NCBI RefSeq assembly: GCF_055900595.2
Contig: NZ_CM148325.1
Length of the DNA stretch: 64,000 bases
Reading direction: 5' to 3' (one strand)
The number at the start of each line of letters is the position of its first letter. Position 1 is the first letter of the stretch. Shown one piece after another: positions 20,928 through 59,111 of the stretch. The notes under the pieces are model-generated. The model ran no database searches. It saw only the letters and a program-made list of their open reading frames with translations, and had not been told where the DNA came from. The position numbers and the translations under genes were made by a program.

Positions 20928-21125
20928 TCTGATGCGACGCTGGCCTGATAAGACGCGGGCAGCGTCGCATCAGGCATCGTGTGCAAATGTCGGATGCGGC
21001 GGGAACGCCTTATCCGACCTACAAGACCTTACATATCAACGTGTTAAAATTGTAGATGCTGATAAGACGCGCCAGCGTCGCATCGGGCATCTTGTGCAAA
21101 TGTTGGATGCGGCATAAACGCCTAT
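20928..21125. repeat. REP/BIME cluster (several REP-like palindromic units)
   Basis: Repeated units CTGATGCGACGCTGGC...GCCAGCGTCGCATCAGGC and GGATGCGGCG..AACGCCTTATCCGACCTAC between yacG and mutT; overlaps the last mutT codons. Confidence 0.75.
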
Positions 21126-21532: not shown

Positions 21533-21562
21533 ATAAAAAAGGCGCAGAATCCTGCGCCTTTT
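21533..21562 (-). terminator. intrinsic terminator in the 59-nt secA-mutT gap
   Basis: On the minus strand: GGCGCAG - loop - CTGCGCC followed by TTTTTTATAGG (plus-strand A6 at 21535-21540). Confidence 0.65.
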
Positions 21563-21579
21563 ACTTCAACTGTTAGCTT

Positions 21580-24285
21580 TTATTGCAGGCGACCGTGGCA
21601 CTGCTTGTATTTTTTACCAGAACCGCACGGACAAGGATCATTACGTCCAACTTTGCGTTCACCGGTTTGTGCCGCCAGTGCAGCTGCGGCTGCAGAGTCG
21701 TCATCCTGATGGCTAAGCTGCTGCATTTGCGCTAAACGCTCGGCTTCCATACGACGCTGTTGTTCCAGCTCCTCAACCTCTTCAGGCATACGTACCTGGA
21801 CTTTGCTCAGCGTGCTGATGACTTCATATTTCAGCGACTCCAGCATCGCTGCAAACATGGAGAACGATTCACGTTTGTATTCCTGCTTCGGATCTTTCTG
21901 TGCATAGCCACGCAGGTGGATACCTTGACGCAGATAATCCATCGCCGCCAGGTGCTCTTTCCACAGGGAGTCAAGCGTTTGCAGCATGACGCCTTTCTCG
22001 AAGTGACGCATCATCTCAGCGCCAACCACTTCTTCTTTACGCTGATACACTTCGATGGACTGCGCCAGAATACGCTCACGCAGCGTCTCTTCATGCAGTT
22101 CTGGCTCTTTGTCCAGCCACTCGGCAATCGGCAAATCGAGGTCGAAATCGTTCTTCAGACGTTCCTGCAGCCCCGGAATATCCCACATTTCTTCCAGCGA
22201 CTGCGGCGGAATGTAGGCATCGATGGTCGCTTTGAACACATCTTCACGAATGCTGTTGATGGTATCGCTCACATCGCTGACATCCAGCAGTTCATTACGC
22301 TGGGAATAAATAGCGCGACGCTGATCGTTAGCCACGTCATCATATTCCAGCAGTTGCTTACGAATATCGAAGTTACGGCTTTCAACTTTACGCTGAGCGT
22401 TGGCAATCGCTTTTGTCACCCACGGGTGCTCGATGGCTTCGCCTGGTTTCATACCCAGTTTACGCATCATGCCGGAAACACGGTCAGAAGCAAAAATACG
22501 CATCAGCGCATCTTCCATCGACAGGTAGAAACGGGAAGAACCGGCATCCCCCTGGCGCCCAGAACGACCGCGTAACTGGTTATCGATACGACGAGATTCG
22601 TGACGTTCTGTACCGATGATATGCAGACCACCTGCAGCCAGTACCGCATCGTGACGCACCTGCCAGTCGGCTTTGATTTTTTCAATTTGCTCTGCGGTCG
22701 GATTTTCCAGCGCGGCAACTTCTGCCTGCCAGCTACCACCGAGCACAATATCTGTACCACGACCCGCCATGTTAGTCGCGATAGTCACCGCCGCCGGATA
22801 ACCCGCTTGTGCAACAATCGCTGCTTCGTTAGCGTGGAATTTGGCGTTCAGAACGTTGTGTTTGATACCGGCTTTGGTCAGTTCGTTTGACACCAGCTCA
22901 GATTTTTCGATGGAGATAGTACCCACCAGCACCGGCTGGCCTTTCGCAGTACGTTCTTTGATATCTTCAATGATCGCCTGAATTTTTTCCGCTTCAGTCA
23001 TGTAGACCAGGTCCGGCAGATCTTTACGAATCATTGGACGGTTGGTCGGAACAACGACGGTATCCAGCTTATAGATGGAGCTGAATTCGAAAGCTTCGGT
23101 ATCAGCAGTACCGGTCATCCCCGCCAGTTTTTCATACAGACGGAAGTAGTTCTGGAAGGTGATCGACGCCAGCGTCTGGTTTTCGTTCTGGATCTGTACA
23201 CCTTCTTTCGCTTCCACTGCCTGATGCAGGCCATCGGACCAACGACGTCCCTGCATGGTACGACCGGTGTGTTCGTCAACGATGATAACTTCACCATCTT
23301 TAACGATGTAGTCGACGTCTCGGGTAAACAGCGCATGAGCGCGCAGCGCCGCCGTTACGTGGTGCATCAGCATGATGTTGGCCGGAGAGTACAGAGACTC
23401 CCCTTCATCCATGATGCCTTCTTTCACCAGCAGTTCTTCAATCAGCACCAGACCACGTTCGGTCAGGTTCACCTGGCGAGATTTTTCGTCCACCGAGAAG
23501 TGGCCTTCGCCCTGGAAGGTTTCGGAGTCTTCTTTTTCCTGACGGATCAGGTGCGGAATAATTTTATTCACGCGTTTATACATTTCCGAGCTGTCTTCTG
23601 CCGGGCCGGAAATGATCAGCGGTGTACGCGCTTCATCGATCAGGATGGAGTCCACTTCGTCCACCAGCGCATAGTGCAGTTTACGCTGTACACGTTCTTC
23701 AGGGCTGAACGCCATGTTATCGCGCAGGTAGTCAAAGCCGTATTCGTTGTTCGTACCGTAAGTGATGTCAGCTGCGTAAGCTTCACGCTTCGCCGGTGCT
23801 GGCATACCCGGCAGGTTGATACCGACTGTCAGGCCGAGGAATTCAAACAGCGGACGGTTGTTTTCGGCGTCACGTTGCGCCAGGTAGTCGTTGACGGTAA
23901 CAACGTGTACGCCCTTACCGGTTAATGCGTTCAGGTAAGCAGGCAGCGTTGCGGTCAGGGTTTTACCTTCACCGGTACGCATTTCCGCGATGCAGCGTTC
24001 GTTAAGAACCATACCGCCGAGTAACTGAACGTCGAAGTGACGCATACCAAAGACGCGCTTACTTGCCTCACGCACTACAGCGAAAGCTTCTGGGATCAGA
24101 TTTTCCAGCACTTCGCCTTTTTCCAGACGTGCACGAAACTCTGCAGTTTTCCCTTTAAGTTCTTCGTCGGAGAGTTTTTCCATCTCCGGTTCCATGGCAT
24201 TGATAATGTTGACGACTTTGCGCATCCGGCGCAGGGTGCGATCGTTACGACTACCGAAAACTTTAGTTAATAATTTGATTAGCAT
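21580..24285 (-). CDS. secA: preprotein translocase ATPase SecA
   Basis: ORF track 901 aa; Walker [10 protein letters not shown]-terminal zinc finger [14 protein letters not shown]. Confidence 0.95.
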
Positions 24286-26107: not shown

Positions 26108-27259
26108 TTAATCAGCTTGCTTACGCAGGAATGCTGGGATATCCAGATAATCCGGCTCTTTCGCAGTTTGCGGCGCATTGTCATTCACGACTTTAGCAAC
26201 CGGCTTCTGCTCCTGGGTCAGCGGAGCCATCCCGTGCTGCTGGTAGCGATCCATCACTGGCTGCTGAACCTGCTTATTGGTCACCAGAGTGATTTCAGGA
26301 CGTTTGTCCATACCGATACCTGTCGCAACAACAGTTACGCGCAGCTCGTCATTCATATCCGGGTCAAGAGAAGTACCGATAACGACAGTTGCGTTGTCGG
26401 ATGCAAATGCACGGATGGTGTTACCTACCGTTTCGAACTCATCCAGACGCAGGTCGAAGCCCGCCGTGATGTTAACCAGCACGCCGCGCGCGCCAGACAG
26501 ATCGATATCTTCCAGCAGCGGAGAGGAGATAGCCATTTCAGCAGCTTCTTCCGCACGGTCTTCGCCGCTCGCCACACCAGAACCCATCATTGCGTAGCCC
26601 ATTTCAGACATTACGGTACGTACGTCTGCAAAGTCCACGTTCATCAGGCCTGGACGAGTAATCAGTTCAGCGATACCTTGCACAGCACCTTTCAGTACAT
26701 CGTTCGCTGCGCCAAATGCATCCAGCAGGGAGATACCGCGGCCCAAGACTTTCAGCAGTTTGTCGTTAGGGATAGTGATCAGAGAGTCCACATGCTTGGA
26801 CAGTTCAGTGATCCCCTGCTCAGCGAATGCCATACGCTTCTTGCCTTCAAAGTTGAAAGGCTTAGTCACGACAGCAACGGTCAGGATCCCCAAATCTTTT
26901 GCCACTTCAGCGACAACTGGTGCTGCACCAGTACCGGTACCACCACCCATACCCGCAGCAATAAAGACCATGTCTGCACCTTCCAGCGCCGCACGCAGTG
27001 CATCGCGATCCTCATCAGCCGCATTACGGCCAACTTCTGGATTTGCGCCAGCTCCCAGTCCTTTGGTGATACCGCTACCGATTTGAATCGTCTGTCCAAC
27101 CGCTGTTTTACGCAGCGCTTGTGCATCGGTATTTACCGCGAAGAATTCAACACCTTCAATGCGCTCGCGCACCATGTGTTCAACAGCATTACCGCCGCCG
27201 CCGCCGACGCCGATGACTTTAATCACCGCGTCATTGGTAAGTTCCATTGGTTCAAACAT
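26108..27259 (-). CDS. ftsZ: cell division GTPase FtsZ
   Basis: ORF track 383 aa; tubulin signature GGGTGTG. Confidence 0.96.
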
Positions 27260-27319
27260 AGTTTCTCTCCGATTTGTGCCTGTCGCCTGAGGCCGTAATT
27301 ATCGTCGACCTCATAAAAA

Positions 27320-28582
27320 TTAAAACTCTTTTCGCAGCCAACTATTGAGTCGCTTGATCCACGAGCCAACTGATGCTGTAACACGTTTTTCTACTTCAGC
27401 TTCACCGTTAAGATGTGACTCTTTCCCATAGTGAAGCAATCCCACCGCCGTCGAATAATACGGCTCCTGAGCATAATCCGTTAAACCGGTAATGTTCAGC
27501 GGCGCGCCGATACGCACTTGCGTATGAAACACGCGCTGAGCACAGGCTGCAAGACCTTCGATCTGCGCTGCGCCACCAGTTAAAACAATGCCTGCCGCCA
27601 GGTGATGTTTAACCCCTTGTTGGCGAAGCTTTTCCTGCAACTGCAATATCTCTTCGTTGACCAGGTTGAGCAGCTCGGTATAGCGCGGCTCGATCACCTC
27701 TGCCAGGGTCTGACGTTGCAGACTCCGCGGTGGACGACCGCCTACGCTCGGCACTTCCACGCTCTCATCTTTTCCAACGATGGAACCCAGCGCACAACCG
27801 TGGCGAACTTTAATCGCTTCGGCGTCGCTTGGCGGCGTGCCAAAGGCGTAAGCGATATCACTGGTCACGACATTGCCAGCATAAGGAATTACCTTAGTGT
27901 GGCGCAATGCCCCACCGGTATAAACGGCGATATCCATTGTACCACCACCGATATCGACGACGCAGACACCCAGTTCACGTTCATCTTCCGTCAATACCGA
28001 ATAACTTGATGCCAGTCCGGCAAATATCAGTTGGTCAACTTTCAGCCCACAACGTTCAACCGCTTTGACGATGTTTTTCGCCATATCGTTGTGACATGTG
28101 ATCAGGTGCACTTTTGCCTGCATCCGCACGCCCGAAAGTCCTACCGGATTCTTGATCCCTTCCTGATAGTCAATCGCATACTCTTGCGGGATCACATGCA
28201 GCACACGATGCTCATCGCGCACACGCACTGATTTCGCGGTATGGACGACGTTTTCCACATCTTCTTGCGTCACTTCTTCTTCAGAAATAGGCACCATACC
28301 AATTTCATTCTGGCAGCTGATGTGCTTACCAGAAAGCGCCAGATATACCGAAGAGATCTGACAATCTGCCATCAATTCTGCCTGGTCAATGGCGCGTTGT
28401 ACGCACTTGACCACGGATTCGAGGTCGTTCACCCCGCCTTTATCCATACCACGCGACGGGCAGCTGCCCACGCCAATGATATTGACCATACCGTCGGGCA
28501 GAACTTCCCCTACTAAAGCGGCAACCTTCGCGGTACCAATCTCCAGTCCTACTACCAGTTTTCTGTCCGTCGCCTTGATCAT
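27320..28582 (-). CDS. ftsA: cell division protein FtsA (actin-like ATPase)
   Basis: ORF track 420 aa. Confidence 0.95.
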
Positions 28583-48194: not shown

Positions 48195-48852
48195 ACTTAA
48201 CTCCACTGTCACACTTAACTCCCTTTCCCTTATTGGAATGCAGAGAAATAATCCTCGAGAATATGATTTATCATGCATATAAAATAAGAAAAAGGAAAAT
48301 GAGAAAAATTAGGAAAACATAAAGATACGGGTTCTTATAAAAACAGAACCCATTGCCGAGTAAAGAGTCATTTACCGCAGCATAATAATCCATAATGTTT
48401 TTGTTGCGAAAACAATCTAATCATAACTACCGCGAATACTCAATCATCCACAAAATGGATTAAATGTGCTTTTTTAATAATTAATTTATATGTTTAATGC
48501 ATTAATTCTTAACATTAATCGAACAATAATATTCACCAAATGAATATCAAAAAATTAGCAAAACATATAATTCAATACAAATCATCAAGATAGGTTTTGT
48601 AACGCGTGCATTTTATCCCCCTTTTCCTCGTTGATTAGATGCAAAAATTTATTCTGAAATATGTCAACCGATGAAAAGCGTCGGTGGTTAAGCAGAAATT
48701 AATATCGCTTGTTTTAACCACCGCAGCACAATTAGCTAATTTGACGAATGCAGAACTCACTCTGGCGGAACGTTTTTGTTGCGTCAGGGTTGACATCCGT
48801 TTTTGTATCCAGTAACTCTAAAAGCATATCGTATTCATCTGGAGCTGATTTA

Positions 48853-48939
48853 ATGACTCACATCGTTCGCTTTATCGGTCTACTACTACTAAACGCATCT
48901 TCTTTGCGCGGTAGACGAGTGAGCGGCATTCAGCATTAA
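48853..48939 (+). CDS. leuL: leu operon leader peptide (28 aa, four consecutive Leu codons)
   Basis: GGAG SD then ATG 48853; [28 protein letters not shown]; Leu codons CUA x4 at 48880-48891. Confidence 0.88.
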
Positions 48940-48954
48940 GCCAGCACGCAGTCA

Positions 48955-48990
48955 AACAAAAAACCCGCGCCATTGCGCGGGTTTTTTTAT
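48955..48990 (+). terminator. leu attenuator (intrinsic terminator)
   Basis: A6-CCCGCGCC-loop-GCGCGGG-T7 at 48958-48988, between leuL and leuA. Confidence 0.88.
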
Positions 48991-53713: not shown

Positions 53714-53757
53714 TTTGTAAACCGTCCGGCACTCAATCGCCAAAAAGAAAAAAGCCA

Positions 53758-53973
53758 GCAGATAATCACTGCTGGCGTGGCGATTAACACCAATACTCAG
53801 TCACACATGATGTCCGCAAATCAGTAGTCAGAATGACTCCCCTCCCACTGCATCAGCTCTTCAAGCATGGTTAATCGTTGTGGGACGCTTAACCAACGCA
53901 ACCAGCACAACGTCGCTGTCGCGGTAAAATAGTGCTGATAAAACTGACGCATGGGGCACCTCCTTGCTTCATC
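53758..53973 (-). ncRNA. sgrS: dual-function small RNA SgrS (glucose-phosphate stress; base-pairs with ptsG mRNA)
   Basis: Minus strand begins GATGAAGCAAGGAGGTGCCCCATG..., contains the GAGUAUUGGUGUUAAUCG seed region and ends in hairpin GCCAGCAG..CUGCUGGC + U6 (plus 53758-53789); divergent from sgrR. Confidence 0.85.
53821..53952 (-). CDS. sgrT: SgrT small protein (43 aa) encoded within SgrS
   Basis: AGGAGG SD then ATG 53950-53952; MRQFYQHYFTATATLCWLRWLSVPQRLTMLEELMQWEGSHSDY; nested in larger track ORF 53821..54120. Confidence 0.8.
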   Translation of the reverse strand: MRQFYQHYFTATATLCWLRWLSVPQRLTMLEELMQWEGSHSDY

Positions 53974-54040: not shown

Positions 54041-55696
54041 ATGCCATCCGCTCGTCTGCAACAACAGTTCATCCGCCTGTGGCAATGCTGCGAGGGTAAA
54101 TCGCAGGACACAACGCTCAACGAACTAGCGGAGTTATTGAGCTGCTCCCGTCGTCATATGCGCACCCTGCTCAATACCATGCAGGATCGCGGCTGGCTGA
54201 CGTGGGAAGCGGAGGTCGGGCGCGGTAAACGCTCACGTTTAACATTCCTCTATACCGGGCTGGCGCTTCAGCAACAGCGAGCAGAGGACCTGCTGGAGCA
54301 GGATCGTATCGATCAGTTGGTGCAACTGGTTGGCGACAAAGCGGCTGTGCGGCAAATGCTGGTTTCTCATCTGGGGCGTACCTTCCGCCAGGGGCGGCAC
54401 ATCCTGCGCGTTCTCTACTATCGTCCGTTGCGCAATCTGCTGCCCGGCAGTGCATTGCGCCGTTCCGAAACCCATATCGCCCGGCAAATCTTCAGTTCGC
54501 TAACGCGCATAAATGAGGAAAATGGGGAACTGGAAGCAGACATCGCCCACCACTGGCAGCAAATATCACCGCTTCACTGGCGCTTCTTTTTGCGTCCAGG
54601 AGTCCATTTTCATCATGGTCGTGAACTGGAAATGGACGACGTGATCGCCTCTTTAAAACGAATCAATACGCTGCCGCTCTATTCGCATATTGCGGACATT
54701 GTGTCGCCGACGCCCTGGACGCTGGATATCCATCTCACGCAACCGGACCGCTGGTTACCGTTACTGCTGGGGCAAGTTCCGGCGATGATCCTGCCACGAG
54801 AATGGGAAACCCTCAGTAACTTTGCCAGCCATCCCATCGGCACCGGTCCGTATGCGGTGATCCGCAACAGCACCAATCAACTGAAAATTCAGGCATTCGA
54901 TGACTTCTTCGGTTATCGCGCATTAATCGACGAAGTAAATGTCTGGGTTCTGCCAGAAATTGCCGACGAGCCAGCCGGCGGTCTGATGCTAAAAGGGCCG
55001 CAGGGCGAGGAAAAAGAGATTGAAAGTCGGCTGGAGGAAGGTTGCTACTATTTACTGTTCGACAGCCGCACCCATCGTGGGGCGAATCAGCAAGTCAGGG
55101 ACTGGGTAAGTTATGTGCTTTCTCCAACTAATCTGGTCTATTTCGCCGAGGAACAATACCAGCAACTCTGGTTTCCAGCCTACGGGCTGTTGCCGCGCTG
55201 GCATCATGCCCACCCGGCGCAGTGCGAAAAACCTGCCGGGCTGGAAAGCCTCACCCTGACCTTTTATCAGGATCATATTGAGCATCGGGTGATTGCCAGG
55301 ATCATGCAGCAGATTCTGGCAAGTCATCAGGTCACACTTGAAATTAAAGAGATCAGCTACGATCAGTGGCACGAAGGAGAGATCGAGAGCGATATCTGGC
55401 TTAACAGCGCCAACTTTACGCTGCCGCTGGATTTTTCGCTGTTCGCGCACTTGTGCGAGGTGCCGCTGCTCCAACACTGTATTCCGATCGACTGGCAAGC
55501 CGACGCCGCCCGCTGGCGCAATGGCGAAATGAATCTGGCGAACTGGTGCCAGCAACTGGTCGCCAGTAAAGCAATGGTGCCACTTATCCACCACTGGCTG
55601 ATCATTCAGGGGCAACGCAGTATGCGCGGTCTGCGTATGAACACCCTCGGCTGGTTCGATTTTAAATCCGCGTGGTTTGCACCACCGGATCCATGA
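54041..55696 (+). CDS. sgrR: transcriptional regulator SgrR (HTH + solute-binding-like domain)
   Basis: Track ORF 54020..55696 (TTG) trimmed to [15 protein letters not shown]... (551 aa) at ATG 54041. Confidence 0.92.
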
Positions 55697-55727
55697 TTGC
55701 TGGTTGATAACAAAATCACTACACTAA

Positions 55728-55855
55728 CGCCGTTCTCAACGGGGTGCCACGCTGCCGCGTGCGCTGAGAAAATACCCGTCGAACCTGATCCGGATAACGC
55801 CGGCGAAGGGATTTGAGGCTCCTTCTCAAGTCCTTTGCCACTCTTCTTTGAGGTG
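55728..55855 (+). promoter_or_regulatory. TPP riboswitch (THI-box) in thiBPQ leader
   Basis: GGGGTGCC...CTGAGA...ACCCGT.GAACCTGATCCGGATAACGCCGGCGAAGGGA conserved THI-element seen at 55741-55811, directly upstream of thiB. Confidence 0.88.
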
Positions 55856-55859
55856 CAAA

Positions 55860-56843
55860 GTGTTAAAAAAATATCTTCCCCTGCTGTTGCTCTGTACAGC
55901 ACCCGCTTTCGCTAAACCCGTTCTGACTGTTTATACCTACGATTCCTTCGCCGCCGACTGGGGGCCAGGTCCGGTGGTGAAAAAAGCCTTTGAAGCCGAC
56001 TGTAATTGCGAACTGAAACTGGTGGCGCTGGAAGATGGCGTTTCGCTTCTCAACCGTCTGCGGATGGAAGGCAAAAACAGTAAAGCCGATGTGGTGCTGG
56101 GGCTGGATAACAATCTGTTAGATGCCGCCAGCAAAACCGGGCTGTTTGCTAAAAGCGGTGTGGCAGCGGATGCCGTTAACGTTCCCGGCGGCTGGAATAA
56201 TGACACTTTCGTCCCGTTTGATTACGGCTATTTCGCCTTCGTCTATGACAAGAACAAACTGAAAAATCCGCCGCAAAGCCTGAAAGAATTGGTTGAAAGC
56301 GATCAAAACTGGCGGGTGATTTATCAGGATCCGCGTACCAGTACGCCGGGCCTGGGCCTGTTGTTGTGGATGCAAAAAGTCTATGGCGATGACGCCCCAC
56401 AAGCCTGGCAGAAGCTGGCGAAGAAAACGGTCACGGTCACCAAAGGCTGGAGCGAAGCCTACGGCCTGTTTTTAAAAGGCGAAAGCGATCTGGTACTGAG
56501 TTACACCACCTCTCCGGCTTATCACATTCTCGAAGAGAAGAAAGATAACTACGCCGCCGCGAACTTCAGCGAAGGTCACTATTTGCAAGTGGAAGTCGCC
56601 GCCCGCACCGCTGCCAGCAAACAGCCGGAGCTGGCGCAAAAATTCCTCCAGTTTATGGTTTCTCCGGCTTTTCAGAATGCGATCCCAACCGGCAACTGGA
56701 TGTATCCGGTGGCAAACGTCACGCTGCCTGCCGGTTTTGAAAAATTGACCAAACCGGCAACCACGCTGGAGTTCACGCCAGCCGAGGTGGCGGCACAACG
56801 TCAGGCATGGATTAGCGAATGGCAACGCGCCGTCAGCCGTTAA
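55860..56843 (+). CDS. thiB: thiamine/TPP ABC transporter periplasmic binding protein
   Basis: Track ORF 55848..56843 (TTG); recognised N-terminus (M)LKKYLPLLLLCTAPAFA signal peptide begins at GTG 55860 with GAGG SD; 327 aa. Confidence 0.88.
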   Translation: MLKKYLPLLLLCTAPAFAKPVLTVYTYDSFAADWGPGPVVKKAFEADCNCELKLVALEDGVSLLNRLRMEGKNSKADVVLGLDNNLLDAASKTGLFAKSGVAADAVNVPGGWNNDTFVPFDYGYFAFVYDKNKLKNPPQSLKELVESDQNWRVIYQDPRTSTPGLGLLLWMQKVYGDDAPQAWQKLAKKTVTVTKGWSEAYGLFLKGESDLVLSYTTSPAYHILEEKKDNYAAANFSEGHYLQVEVAARTAASKQPELAQKFLQFMVSPAFQNAIPTGNWMYPVANVTLPAGFEKLTKPATTLEFTPAEVAAQRQAWISEWQRAVSR

Positions 56844-58429
56844 TTCCCGGCTGGTTAATTCCAGGCGTAAGCGCCGCTACGCTTGTGGTGGCGGTTGCAC
56901 TGGCGGCATTTCTCGCCCTGTGGTGGAACGCGCCGCAGGGTGACTGGATGGCAATCTGGCAGGACAGCTACCTGTGGCATGTGGTGCGCTTCTCCTTCTG
57001 GCAGGCGTTTCTCTCGGCGCTGCTCTCTGTCGTACCCGCGATATTCCTCGCCCGCGCGCTCTATCGCAGGCGCTTTCCGGGTCGGCTGGTGCTGTTGCGT
57101 CTGTGCGCAATGACCTTGATCCTCCCGGTGCTGGTTGCTGTTTTCGGCATTCTTAGCGTCTATGGTCGCCAGGGCTGGCTGGCATCACTCTGCCAATCGC
57201 TCGGTCTGGAGTGGACCTTTTCGCCCTACGGCCTGCAAGGCATTTTGCTGGCGCACGTATTTTTTAATCTGCCGATGGCGAGCCGCTTATTGCTCCAGGC
57301 ACTGGAAAACATTCCCGGCGAACAGCGTCAGCTTGCTGCCCAGCTTGGCATGCGCGGCTGGCATTTTTTCCGCTTCGTTGAATGGCCGTGGTTACGGCGC
57401 CAAATCCCGCCGGTTGCTGCGCTGATCTTTATGCTCTGTTTCGCCAGCTTCGCCACCGTGCTGTCGCTGGGCGGTGGTCCGCAGGCGACCACTATCGAGC
57501 TGGCAATCTATCAAGCGCTGAGTTACGACTACGATCCCGCCCGCGCGGCGATGCTGGCGCTGATCCAGATGGTTTGTTGCCTTGGGCTGGTGCTGTTGAG
57601 TCAGCGACTAAGTAAGGCCATTGCGCCCGGCACCACGCTGCTGCAAGGCTGGCGCGACCCGGACGATCGTCTGCATAGCCGCATTTGCGACACGGTGTTA
57701 ATTGTGCTGGCGCTGTTGCTGTTGCTGCCACCGTTACTGGCGGTGCTCGTCGATGGGATAAATCGCCAGTTGCCGGAAGTGCTGGCGCAGCCGGTGCTGT
57801 GGCAGGCGCTGTGGACCTCGTTGCGTATTGCGCTGGCGGCAGGCGTATTGTGCGTGGTGCTGACCATGATGCTGCTATGGAGCAGTCGCGAACTGCGGGC
57901 ACGGCAAAAAATGCTGGCGGGCCAGGCGCTGGAGATGAGCGGCATGTTGATCCTCGCTATGCCGGGGATTGTGCTGGCAACGGGCTTCTTTTTACTGCTC
58001 AACAACACCATCGGCCTGCCACAATCTGCTGACGGCATCGTGATTTTCACCAATGCGTTAATGGCCATCCCTTATGCGCTGAAAGTGCTGGAAAACCCGA
58101 TGCGCGATATCACTGCCCGCTATAGCATGCTTTGTCAGTCGCTGGGCATTGAAGGCTGGTCGCGCTTAAAAGTGGTGGAGCTGCGCGCCCTGAAACGTCC
58201 GCTGGCGCAGGCGCTGGCCTTTGCCTGTGTACTGTCGATTGGTGATTTTGGCGTGGTGGCGTTGTTCGGTAACGATGATTTCCGAACCCTACCGTTTTAT
58301 CTCTACCAGCAAATTGGCTCCTATCGCAGCCAGGACGGCGCGGTCACCGCGTTAATTCTGCTGCTGCTCTGTTTTCTGCTGTTTACCGTGATTGAAAAAC
58401 TACCGGGGCGAAATGTTAAAACTGACTGA
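56819..58429 (+). CDS. thiP: thiamine ABC transporter permease
   Basis: ORF track 536 aa; two permease-like halves, multi-TM; overlaps thiB end. Confidence 0.92.
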
Positions 58430-59111
58430 TATCACCTGGCTTTATCACCATTTGCCGATGCGTTTTAGCTTAACGGTGGAACCCGGCGAGCAGGTGGCGA
58501 TCCTCGGGCCAAGCGGCGCGGGTAAAAGTACCCTGCTAAATTTGATCGCCGGTTTTCTGACGCCAGCCAGCGGTTCGCTGACTATCGAGGGTATTGATCA
58601 CACCACTACGCCGCCGTCACGCCGTCCGGTGTCGATGCTGTTTCAGGAGAACAACCTGTTCAGTCACCTGACGGTCGCGCAGAACATCGGGCTGGGGCTA
58701 AATCCGGGCTTGAAACTGAACGCGGCGCAGCAGGAGAAAATGCACGCTATTGCCCGTCAGATGGGGATTGATAATTTAATGGCGCGGTTACCGGGCGAGC
58801 TTTCCGGCGGTCAGCGACAGCGCGTGGCGTTAGCGCGTTGTCTGGTGCGCGAACAGCCGATTTTATTGCTCGATGAACCGTTCTCTGCGCTCGATCCGGC
58901 GTTACGTCAGGAGATGCTGACGCTGGTGAGCACGAGCTGCCAGCAGCAAAAAATGACGCTATTGATGGTGTCGCACAGTGTGGAAGATGCGGCGCGGATC
59001 GCCACACGCTCGGTGGTGGTCGCCGACGGGCGCATCGCCTGGCAGGGTAAGACTGAAGAATTGTTGAGCGGTAAGGCGAGTGCTTCGGCAATATTGGGGA
59101 TTACGGGTTAG
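58413..59111 (+). CDS. thiQ: thiamine ABC transporter ATP-binding protein
   Basis: Track ORF 58392..59111 (TTG) trimmed to [13 protein letters not shown]... (232 aa); Walker [10 protein letters not shown], signature LSGGQRQR. Confidence 0.92.

Follow-up and report, generated by a model that had tools for sequence, protein, structure and literature searches.

The 128-nt 5' leader of thiBPQ in the window (the whole 64,000-nt stretch of DNA that we analysed) is, at a probability of roughly 97%, the TPP riboswitch of E. coli thiB (tbpA), which acts as a translational OFF switch. This identification is correct and was already known: the element belongs to Rfam family RF00059 as an allele of the thiB/tbpA riboswitch of E. 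coli, a species for which three TPP riboswitches, this one among them, were on record by the early 2000s (Rodionov 2002 and Winkler 2002, as cited in PMC10578472). An earlier note on this DNA had proposed that a TPP riboswitch controls thiBPQ, and the proposal is borne out by an RF00059 match, by a RefSeq feature, by the assignment of ThiB, ThiP and ThiQ to equivalog families, and by reporter, toeprint and mutant experiments in K-12 (PMC11487190, PMC10578472). The span given in that note, 55728-55859, runs from 4 nt before the putative transcription start to the base before the GTG start codon of thiB, and it comprises the aptamer and the expression platform. The features of the locus are collected in Table 1.

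Table 1. Features of the thiBPQ leader, its operon and related leaders (window coordinates unless a related locus is named)
Feature	Position	Strand	Basis or remark
Putative sigma-70 promoter of thiBPQ	55697-55725	+	-35 TTGCTG 55697-55702, 17-nt spacer, -10 TACACT 55720-55725
TPP riboswitch aptamer (THI element, RF00059)	55730-55829	+	Rfam match; RefSeq feature at the same coordinates
Transcription start (+1) of the thiB leader, equal to the SroA 5' end	55732	+	Mapped in K-12, transferred by alignment
SroA equivalent, 93-nt 5' fragment of the leader	55732-55824	+	K-12 b4762 annotation via alignment
P1	55735-55739 with 55813-55817	+	Rfam structure mapped onto the sequence
P2/P3	55740-55778	+	Includes CUGAGA at 55764-55769
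P4/P5	55784-55809	+	Rfam structure mapped onto the sequence
Anti-sequestering / anti-P1 stem-loop (ON)	55802-55839	+	Folding, conservation, published stems
SD-sequestering hairpin (OFF)	55833-55860 (+102 to +129)	+	Constrained folding, conservation
In-frame TTG, not the start codon	55848-55850	+	Mechanical ORF start; overlaps the SD (TTGAGG)
Shine-Dalgarno GAGG	55850-55853 (+119 to +122)	+	6 nt upstream of GTG
GTG start codon of thiB	55860-55862 (+129 to +131)	+	SD, conservation, PGAP, K-12
thiB (tbpA)	55860-56843	+	Periplasmic thiamine/TPP-binding protein, 327 aa; NCBIfam TIGR01276 equivalog, 646.6 bits
thiP, permease	56819-58429	+	Equivalog NF006953, 1194.8 bits; 25-nt overlap with thiB end (56819-56843)
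thiQ, ATPase	58413-59111	+	Equivalog NF008039, 449.2 bits; 17-nt overlap with thiP end (58413-58429)
ERIC-like repeat in the P3 loop of related leaders	L005 (1254-1500), L011, L013, L023, L026, L039, L044, L050, L055, L060, L067, L071

The thiBPQ leader and its aptamer

The gene order in the window (leuCD, sgrS/sgrT, sgrR, thiB, thiP, thiQ, yabI, araC) is that of E. coli, and several complete E. coli genomes match the 1-kb stretch around the leader at 100% identity. In one of these, NZ_CP098223.1, RefSeq/PGAP places a "TPP riboswitch" feature whose converted coordinates are 55730-55829 of the window, and a thiB gene of 984 nt and 327 aa that starts with the GTG at window position 55860. The leader element was found in 5398 of 5426 complete E. 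coli genomes; among the genome records listed, all annotate the element as a riboswitch together with thiB (E. coli). The overlaps between thiB and thiP and between thiP and thiQ suggest translational coupling, and repression at the thiB start may therefore reach the entire operon.

The closest known element is the thiB (tbpA) riboswitch of K-12, also annotated as SroA (b4762), upstream of thiBPQ (b0068-b0066), with which the window shares the sgrR-thiB locus, the length and the architecture. The two leader stretches align without indels and differ at four bases, none of which is paired or contacts the ligand: P1, CUGAGA, P4/P5, CUCAA, CCUUUGCC, the GAGG Shine-Dalgarno (SD) sequence and GUG are all identical. 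In the P3 loop the window has UGC at 55753-55755 (loop UGCC), whereas K-12 has GUA (GUAC), and position 55846, in the loop of the sequestering hairpin, is C in the window and U in K-12. Judged from the sequence, the differences between the two leaders are expected to be without functional effect. The thiB gene of MG1655 (b0068) encodes 327 aa, as does that of the window. By analogy, the window's leader should bind TPP as well, given that the K-12 RNA is identical to it at all paired and ligand-contacting positions; TPP binding and the accompanying change in structure have been followed in K-12 by RNase H probing, smFRET, SHAPE-Seq and the G35C and G17C mutants (PMC8609307, PMC11487190, PMC10578472).

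The transcription start was derived from the K-12 coordinates of sroA (75516-75608) and of the thiB start (75480), which make GUG +129 to +131. This numbering puts G35 (in CUGAGA), G121 (in GAGG), U130 (in GUG) and C144 exactly on the published bases. Upstream of it, immediately after the sgrR stop codon TGA (55694-55696), a putative sigma-70 promoter was read by hand, anchored on the SroA 5' end of K-12. Its -10 element is spaced 6 nt from the start site and reads TACA[C/A]T across related leaders. A sigma-70 consensus scan of the region did not report this promoter, because its -35 element agrees with the consensus at only 3 of 6 positions. Promoter and riboswitch together account for the entire 163-nt spacer between sgrR and thiB.

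A scan against the Rfam TPP model, named as a check in the earlier note, gave a full-length match (Rfam 15, RF00059, model positions 1-105 of 105) with 66.1 bits against a gathering score of 54.3. The E-value is 9.3e-11 for a search of both strands of the 64-kb window with 4227 families, and 5.8e-13 in a local search. Standard pairs occur at 22 of the 23 model pairs, the exception being G56/A75 in P4, and the optional P3a stem is missing (a deletion in the RF00059 alignment). Both conserved motifs of the family, CUGAGA and ACCUGAUCCGGAUAACGCCGGCG, are found in the leader: the pyrimidine sensor CTGAGA lies at 55764-55769, and the pyrophosphate-sensor THI box (reference motif ACCUGAUCYGGAUAAYGCCRGCG) is present as AACCTGATCCGGATAACGCCGGCGAA at 55782-55807, or as AACCTGATCCGGATAACGCCGGCGAAGGGA when taken to 55811. 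Thus, the leader carries the canonical THI-box aptamer upstream of thiB that had been described from the letters, with all but one of its helix pairs standard. The aptamer is located 31 nt upstream of thiB, on the same strand, in the 5' leader of a thiamine transport gene.

The unconstrained minimum-energy fold of 55728-55880 did not recover P1 and reached a z of only -1.98. This indicates that, without ligand, a fold other than the aptamer is thermodynamically favoured, and that plain folding is no useful test for the aptamer. The structures discussed below were therefore taken from the Rfam model and from constrained folds of +1 to +150.

For the analysis of conservation we used thiB loci from 80 Enterobacteriaceae species, of which 78 leaders were aligned with the window, resulting in 79 sequences, 74 of them distinct. 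Fixed-length extraction clipped the 5' part of the aptamer where P3 insertions are large. The alignment (A2) is reliable only from CUGAGA on, and the P1 to P3 pairs were therefore left uncounted on it. The CTGAGA and THI-box columns are invariant or nearly so in the 79 leaders. One of the related loci (L050, CACSKA010000010.1) is titled Chryseobacterium sp. 18061; it is an enterobacterial thiB locus with a ThiB that is 85% identical and with the full conserved leader, and the contig is most likely a contaminant or mislabelled.

Several further Rfam families matched elsewhere in the window above their gathering scores, as expected for this region of E. coli: SgrS at 53747-53973 (-) with 228 bits, the leucine operon leader at 48839-48988 (+) with 147.5 bits, tp2 at 9555-9668 (+), STnc40 at 21535-21604 (-) and naRNA4 at 20942-21019 (-). 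Moreover, PssrA (plasmid-encoded Shigella sRNA A) matched at 27251-27340 (-) with 105.2 bits. This site covers the 3' end of ftsA and the ftsA-ftsZ spacer, in sense to both genes, and is chromosomal, not on a plasmid.

Alternative helices and the proposed switch

To mimic the TPP-bound state, the leader was folded with the aptamer helices imposed. In this fold the SD bases G119-G121 and base G129 of GUG are paired with a probability of at least 0.99 (probability of being unpaired at most 0.01). They lie in a hairpin in which CUUUGC (55833-55838) pairs with GCAAAG (55855-55860), and CUC (55841-55843) with the GAG of the SD (55850-55852). Its energy is -10.6 kcal/mol when +102 to +129 are folded alone, and -11.2 kcal/mol when two more bases are included. 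The overlap of the expression platform with the SD and the GTG, which had been claimed before, is thereby supported, and the hairpin extends to G55860, one base past the span of the earlier note. Comparable hairpins are predicted in 79 of 79 leaders (-7.7 to -12.2 kcal/mol). All of them pair at least two of the three AGG bases and the G of GUG, with inner pairings that differ by genus. The six outer pairs are invariant in all 74 distinct sequences, and one inner pair shows a double change from CG to UA in four sequences, which probably reflects a single evolutionary event.

The alternative to this hairpin is the anti-P1 stem. Its 5' arm (+71 to +87, 55802-55818) is made up of the 3' strands of P5, P4 and P1, and its 3' arm (+93 to +108, 55824-55839) of the linker CUCAA (55825-55829), the "invader", which is identical to the 5' strand of P1, and of CCUUUGCC. 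Folded alone, the stem has an energy of -19.8 kcal/mol, and nascent transcripts of 104-124 nt are predicted to adopt it. Since it shares bases with P1, P4 and P5 as well as with the CCUUUGCC arm, it excludes both the aptamer and the sequestering hairpin. In the 79 leaders its energy ranges from -19.1 to -20.7 kcal/mol, and 95.4% of cells are paired among the 74 distinct sequences, as compared to 38-69% in slid registers. There are no double-sided changes in this stem, and nearly all pairs of the platform are invariant, so that covariation tests are largely uninformative. The platform helices are thus backed by strong conservation and by thermodynamics, with very little covariation.

The leader therefore combines a helix of SD and start codon that is compatible with the aptamer and an alternative helix that excludes it, as in riboswitches that sequester the SD. 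The two structures correspond to the "sequestering stem" and the "antisequestering stem" of Berman et al. 2023 (PMC10578472), and the alternative stem to the "anti-P1 stem" of Chauvier et al. 2021 (PMC8609307). Direct pairing of the linker CCUUCUCAA (+93 to +98) with UUGAGG of the SD (+117 to +122) was considered as another way to mask the SD and rejected: in folds with the aptamer helices imposed it reaches -29.4 kcal/mol versus -37.5 kcal/mol for the local hairpin, and it also mismatches the published sequestering stem.

Two other TPP riboswitches of E. coli bear on this architecture. The thiM riboswitch shares the aptamer class, repression by SD sequestration and an anti-sequestering alternative (PMC8609307 and PMC10578472, citing Rodionov 2002 and Winkler 2002). 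However, it belongs to another gene and has another platform; as described, thiB uses a linker that copies the 5' strand of P1 together with a local SD hairpin. The thiC riboswitch, as cited in PMC11487190, has an anti-P1 stem, a pause near the start codon, and control of both translation and transcript level. It carries a Rho-binding site within the riboswitch, whereas a role of Rho in thiB is disputed (PMC10578472 versus PMC11487190).

In the full-length minimum-energy fold (-48.3 kcal/mol) a short anti-P1 stem and the SD hairpin occur together. The fully extended anti-P1 state lies 1.5 kcal/mol above this minimum, and the 3-bp CUC/GAG pairing is predicted even there. Equilibrium folding thus fails to part the two states cleanly, which implies that the ON state depends on kinetics, as the literature says. 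Both the small energy difference between the competing states and the mixed minimum fit the published kinetic switch.

With the mechanism published for K-12 (PMC10578472, PMC8609307), which our folds reproduce, the sequence of events in the window would be as follows. Transcription would begin at about 55732, and the aptamer, P1 to P5 (through 55817), would fold first. If TPP binds before RNA polymerase has left the leader, P1, P4 and P5 would be locked and 55833-55860 would be free to form the hairpin, in which the GAG of the SD and the first base of the GTG are predicted to be paired. The 30S subunit would be kept off, ThiB synthesis would fall, and the level of the untranslated mRNA would also be lowered. 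Without TPP, the linker CUCAA would invade P1 and zip up with the 3' strands of P1, P4 and P5 into the long stem of 55802-55818 with 55824-55839. This stem would also use up CCUUUGCC, one arm of the sequestering hairpin, and so leave the SD and the GTG exposed and thiB translated.

The aptamer match, the gene identities, the energies and conservation of the alternative helices, the strength of the SD and the conservation of the start codon are results of the present analysis. TPP dependence, the 30S toeprint, the mutants and the pause sites come from papers on K-12 and are transferred to the window by near identity. According to Berman et al. 2023 (PMC10578472), weakened pairing of the ribosome-binding site breaks the TPP response in K-12, and deletion or randomisation of the linker locks the switch OFF. 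Mutants of the sequestering stem and of the invader, incumbent and substrate strands bias the switch ON or OFF as predicted by the strand-displacement model, and cotranscriptional SHAPE-Seq backs the antisequestering stem (PMC10578472). Chauvier et al. 2021 (PMC8609307) found that the polymerase pauses at 83, 104, 117 and 136. Sensing of TPP is efficient only while the polymerase lies in the interval from the 104 pause to the 117 pause; the anti-P1 stem, which forms later, at 136, narrows the TPP-sensing window (PMC8609307). Finally, Grondin et al. 2024 (PMC11487190) reported for K-12 that TPP lowers 30S binding 2.2-fold (toeprint at C144), that G35C abolishes the TPP response, and that the SD mutant G121C has a low and unregulated expression. 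As the mechanism was dissected in such detail between 2021 and 2024, the window makes no open question newly testable.

It is unlikely that the switch works mainly on the level of the transcript, by Rho-dependent termination or mRNA decay inside thiB, and not on translation initiation. The extent of an mRNA-level component is disputed. Transcriptional lacZ fusions were repressed 1.6- to 3.9-fold by TPP, and a translation-dead U130A transcriptional fusion was still repressed 2.4-fold (PMC11487190), which would fit such a component, as would the role of Rho proposed by Bastet et al. 2017 (as cited in PMC11487190). In contrast, only full-length product was obtained in vitro at every TPP level, without intrinsic termination, and bicyclomycin left repression unchanged (PMC10578472); the same study reports both that weakening of the sequestering hairpin alone removes all regulation and that translational fusions are repressed equally whether or not Rho is functional. 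In line with this, our scan of the + strand from 55400 to 56100, which includes the leader, found no intrinsic-terminator-like site. Moreover, the toeprint is a direct effect on 30S binding (PMC11487190), and the conserved hairpin pairs the SD and the start codon, both of which argue for translation initiation as the main level of control.

The 5' part of the leader is also known as a small RNA. K-12 annotates sroA, +1 to +93, as an ncRNA; regulation by this sRNA has been predicted, and it has been linked to antibiotic tolerance in Salmonella (PMC8609307; PMC3511261). That the stable 93-nt SroA is the main product and acts in trans as a small regulatory RNA, with the control of thiB being secondary, is nevertheless very unlikely. 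The most strongly conserved parts are the core of the aptamer and the SD-GTG platform, the latter lying beyond the 3' end of SroA. This fits cis control, and cis regulation has been demonstrated experimentally in K-12. Besides its role in cis, released SroA (55732-55824) might act in trans as a TPP-responsive small RNA, a possibility that we consider quite unlikely.

The start codon of thiB

The start codon of thiB is GTG 55860, which gives a protein of 327 aa with an 18-aa signal peptide, and not TTG 55848. The earlier note had made the same choice, and had pointed out that the SD would be coding under the start of the ORF track; on both points it was right, and the TTG overlaps the SD (TTGAGG). 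The mechanical ORF list starts at this TTG, which lies in frame four codons upstream of the GTG (331 aa); no other initiator codon stands between it and the preceding stop. Translation of thiB from the TTG, as the longest-ORF rule has it, is hardly tenable. When the 20 nt ahead of each candidate start were tested, the duplex between SD and 16S anti-SD had an energy of -9.2 kcal/mol for UUGAGGUG before the GTG, but only -0.1 kcal/mol for the TTG, which thus has no upstream SD. Moreover, both PGAP and the K-12 annotation use the GTG.

Conservation points in the same direction. AGGTGCAAAGTG is invariant in all 79 Enterobacteriaceae leaders. The codon at -12, the position of the TTG, is an initiator in 44 of them (TTG in 34, ATG in 9 and GTG in 1), which would be compatible with a start at this site, but a non-initiator in 35 (CTG in 19, AAG in 6, CAG in 3 and others in 7), and a stop stands there in three leaders (TAG in L059 and L074, TAA in L035). 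In Salmonella enterica subsp. diarizonae an in-frame stop is found at -15. With the four residues MRCK added, the signal peptide would still have a plausible n-region. An ATG at -12 was observed in L006, L008, L011, L012, L031, L038, L044, L048, L067 and L071; gene callers may prefer it, in which case ThiB would be annotated four residues too long.

The most direct evidence is from K-12, for which the TTG start is already effectively refuted. In an in-frame translational fusion the U130A mutation (GUG to GAG) left expression barely detectable (PMC11487190). This loss shows that GUG is the start codon, since with a start at the TTG the mutation would only change Val to Glu. In addition, the toeprint of 30S and tRNA-fMet at C144 is at +15 from G129 (PMC11487190) and fits this base, not +117.

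The signal peptide of ThiB, MLKKYLPLLLLCTAPAFA followed by KPV, consists of 18 residues encoded by 55860-55913, and the mature protein begins with K19 (55914). In crystallised ThiB (PDB 2QRY) the tag is followed by K19, and from there on all residues to the C-terminus are identical to those of the window's ThiB. Since the signal peptide is removed, the mature N-terminus cannot tell a GTG from a TTG start, and N-terminal proteomics, which had been suggested as a test, is uninformative. A minor, N-terminally extended ThiB precursor made from TTG 55848 under some conditions is conceivable, though with little likelihood. The practical value of the present analysis for the window is one of annotation only: the longest-ORF start of thiB at TTG 55848 is wrong, and GTG 55860 is right.

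Insertions and a possible aptamer loss in related leaders

The element also precedes thiB in genera with a ThiB of 81-98% identity, and together with an E-value of about 9e-11 and a full-length match above the curated threshold this makes it virtually inconceivable that the RF00059 match is a chance resemblance in a leader without any ligand-sensing role.

The P3 loop of the thiB aptamer contains an ERIC-like repeat in at least 12 related leaders (Citrobacter, Raoultella, Pseudocitrobacter and others). The repeats were found by their core GTGACTGGGGTGAGCG, allowing at most two mismatches, and we take this core to be that of the ERIC consensus. The distance from P1 to CUGAGA is 144-228 nt with the repeat versus 26-29 nt without it. 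In the RNAfold prediction for the L005 leader P1, P2, P4 and P5 are kept, and P3 is a very long hairpin. Our search of the literature on ERIC elements within riboswitches yielded no specific report.

An Rfam scan of 12 related loci gave a TPP match in nine. At the gathering threshold, no TPP match was obtained for L005 and L011, which carry the ERIC-like repeat in P3, and for L069, in which the 5' part of the aptamer is replaced. That Rfam misses L005 and L011 suggests that riboswitches bearing ERIC-like repeats are probably under-annotated by genome pipelines. The observation may thus have a modest practical value, as the repeat pushes the aptamer below Rfam detection at these two loci.

In L011 (Citrobacter sp. 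wls619, 1345-1500) the loop of the sequestering hairpin carries another ERIC-like copy, which is inverted relative to the first and sits between CCUUUGCCACC and AUGAGGUGCAAAGUG; folding still predicts the outer helix of this hairpin. When the leader is folded at full length, the two copies of the repeat pair with each other, and such a pairing, as modelled, might disturb the switch.

In L069 (1082-1470, a Pluralibacter metagenome-assembled genome) everything 5' of the 3' strand of P5, that is the 5' two-thirds of the aptamer, is gone. Its place is taken by unrelated AT-rich DNA with an 85-aa ORF on the opposite strand. The arms of the anti-sequestering stem and of the sequestering hairpin are intact, as are the SD and the GTG. 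Either the aptamer has been lost naturally, or the locus is a chimera of the assembly.

Finally, the window itself contains one ERIC-like core, GTGACTGGGGTGAGGG, at position 4730 (-), with one mismatch.
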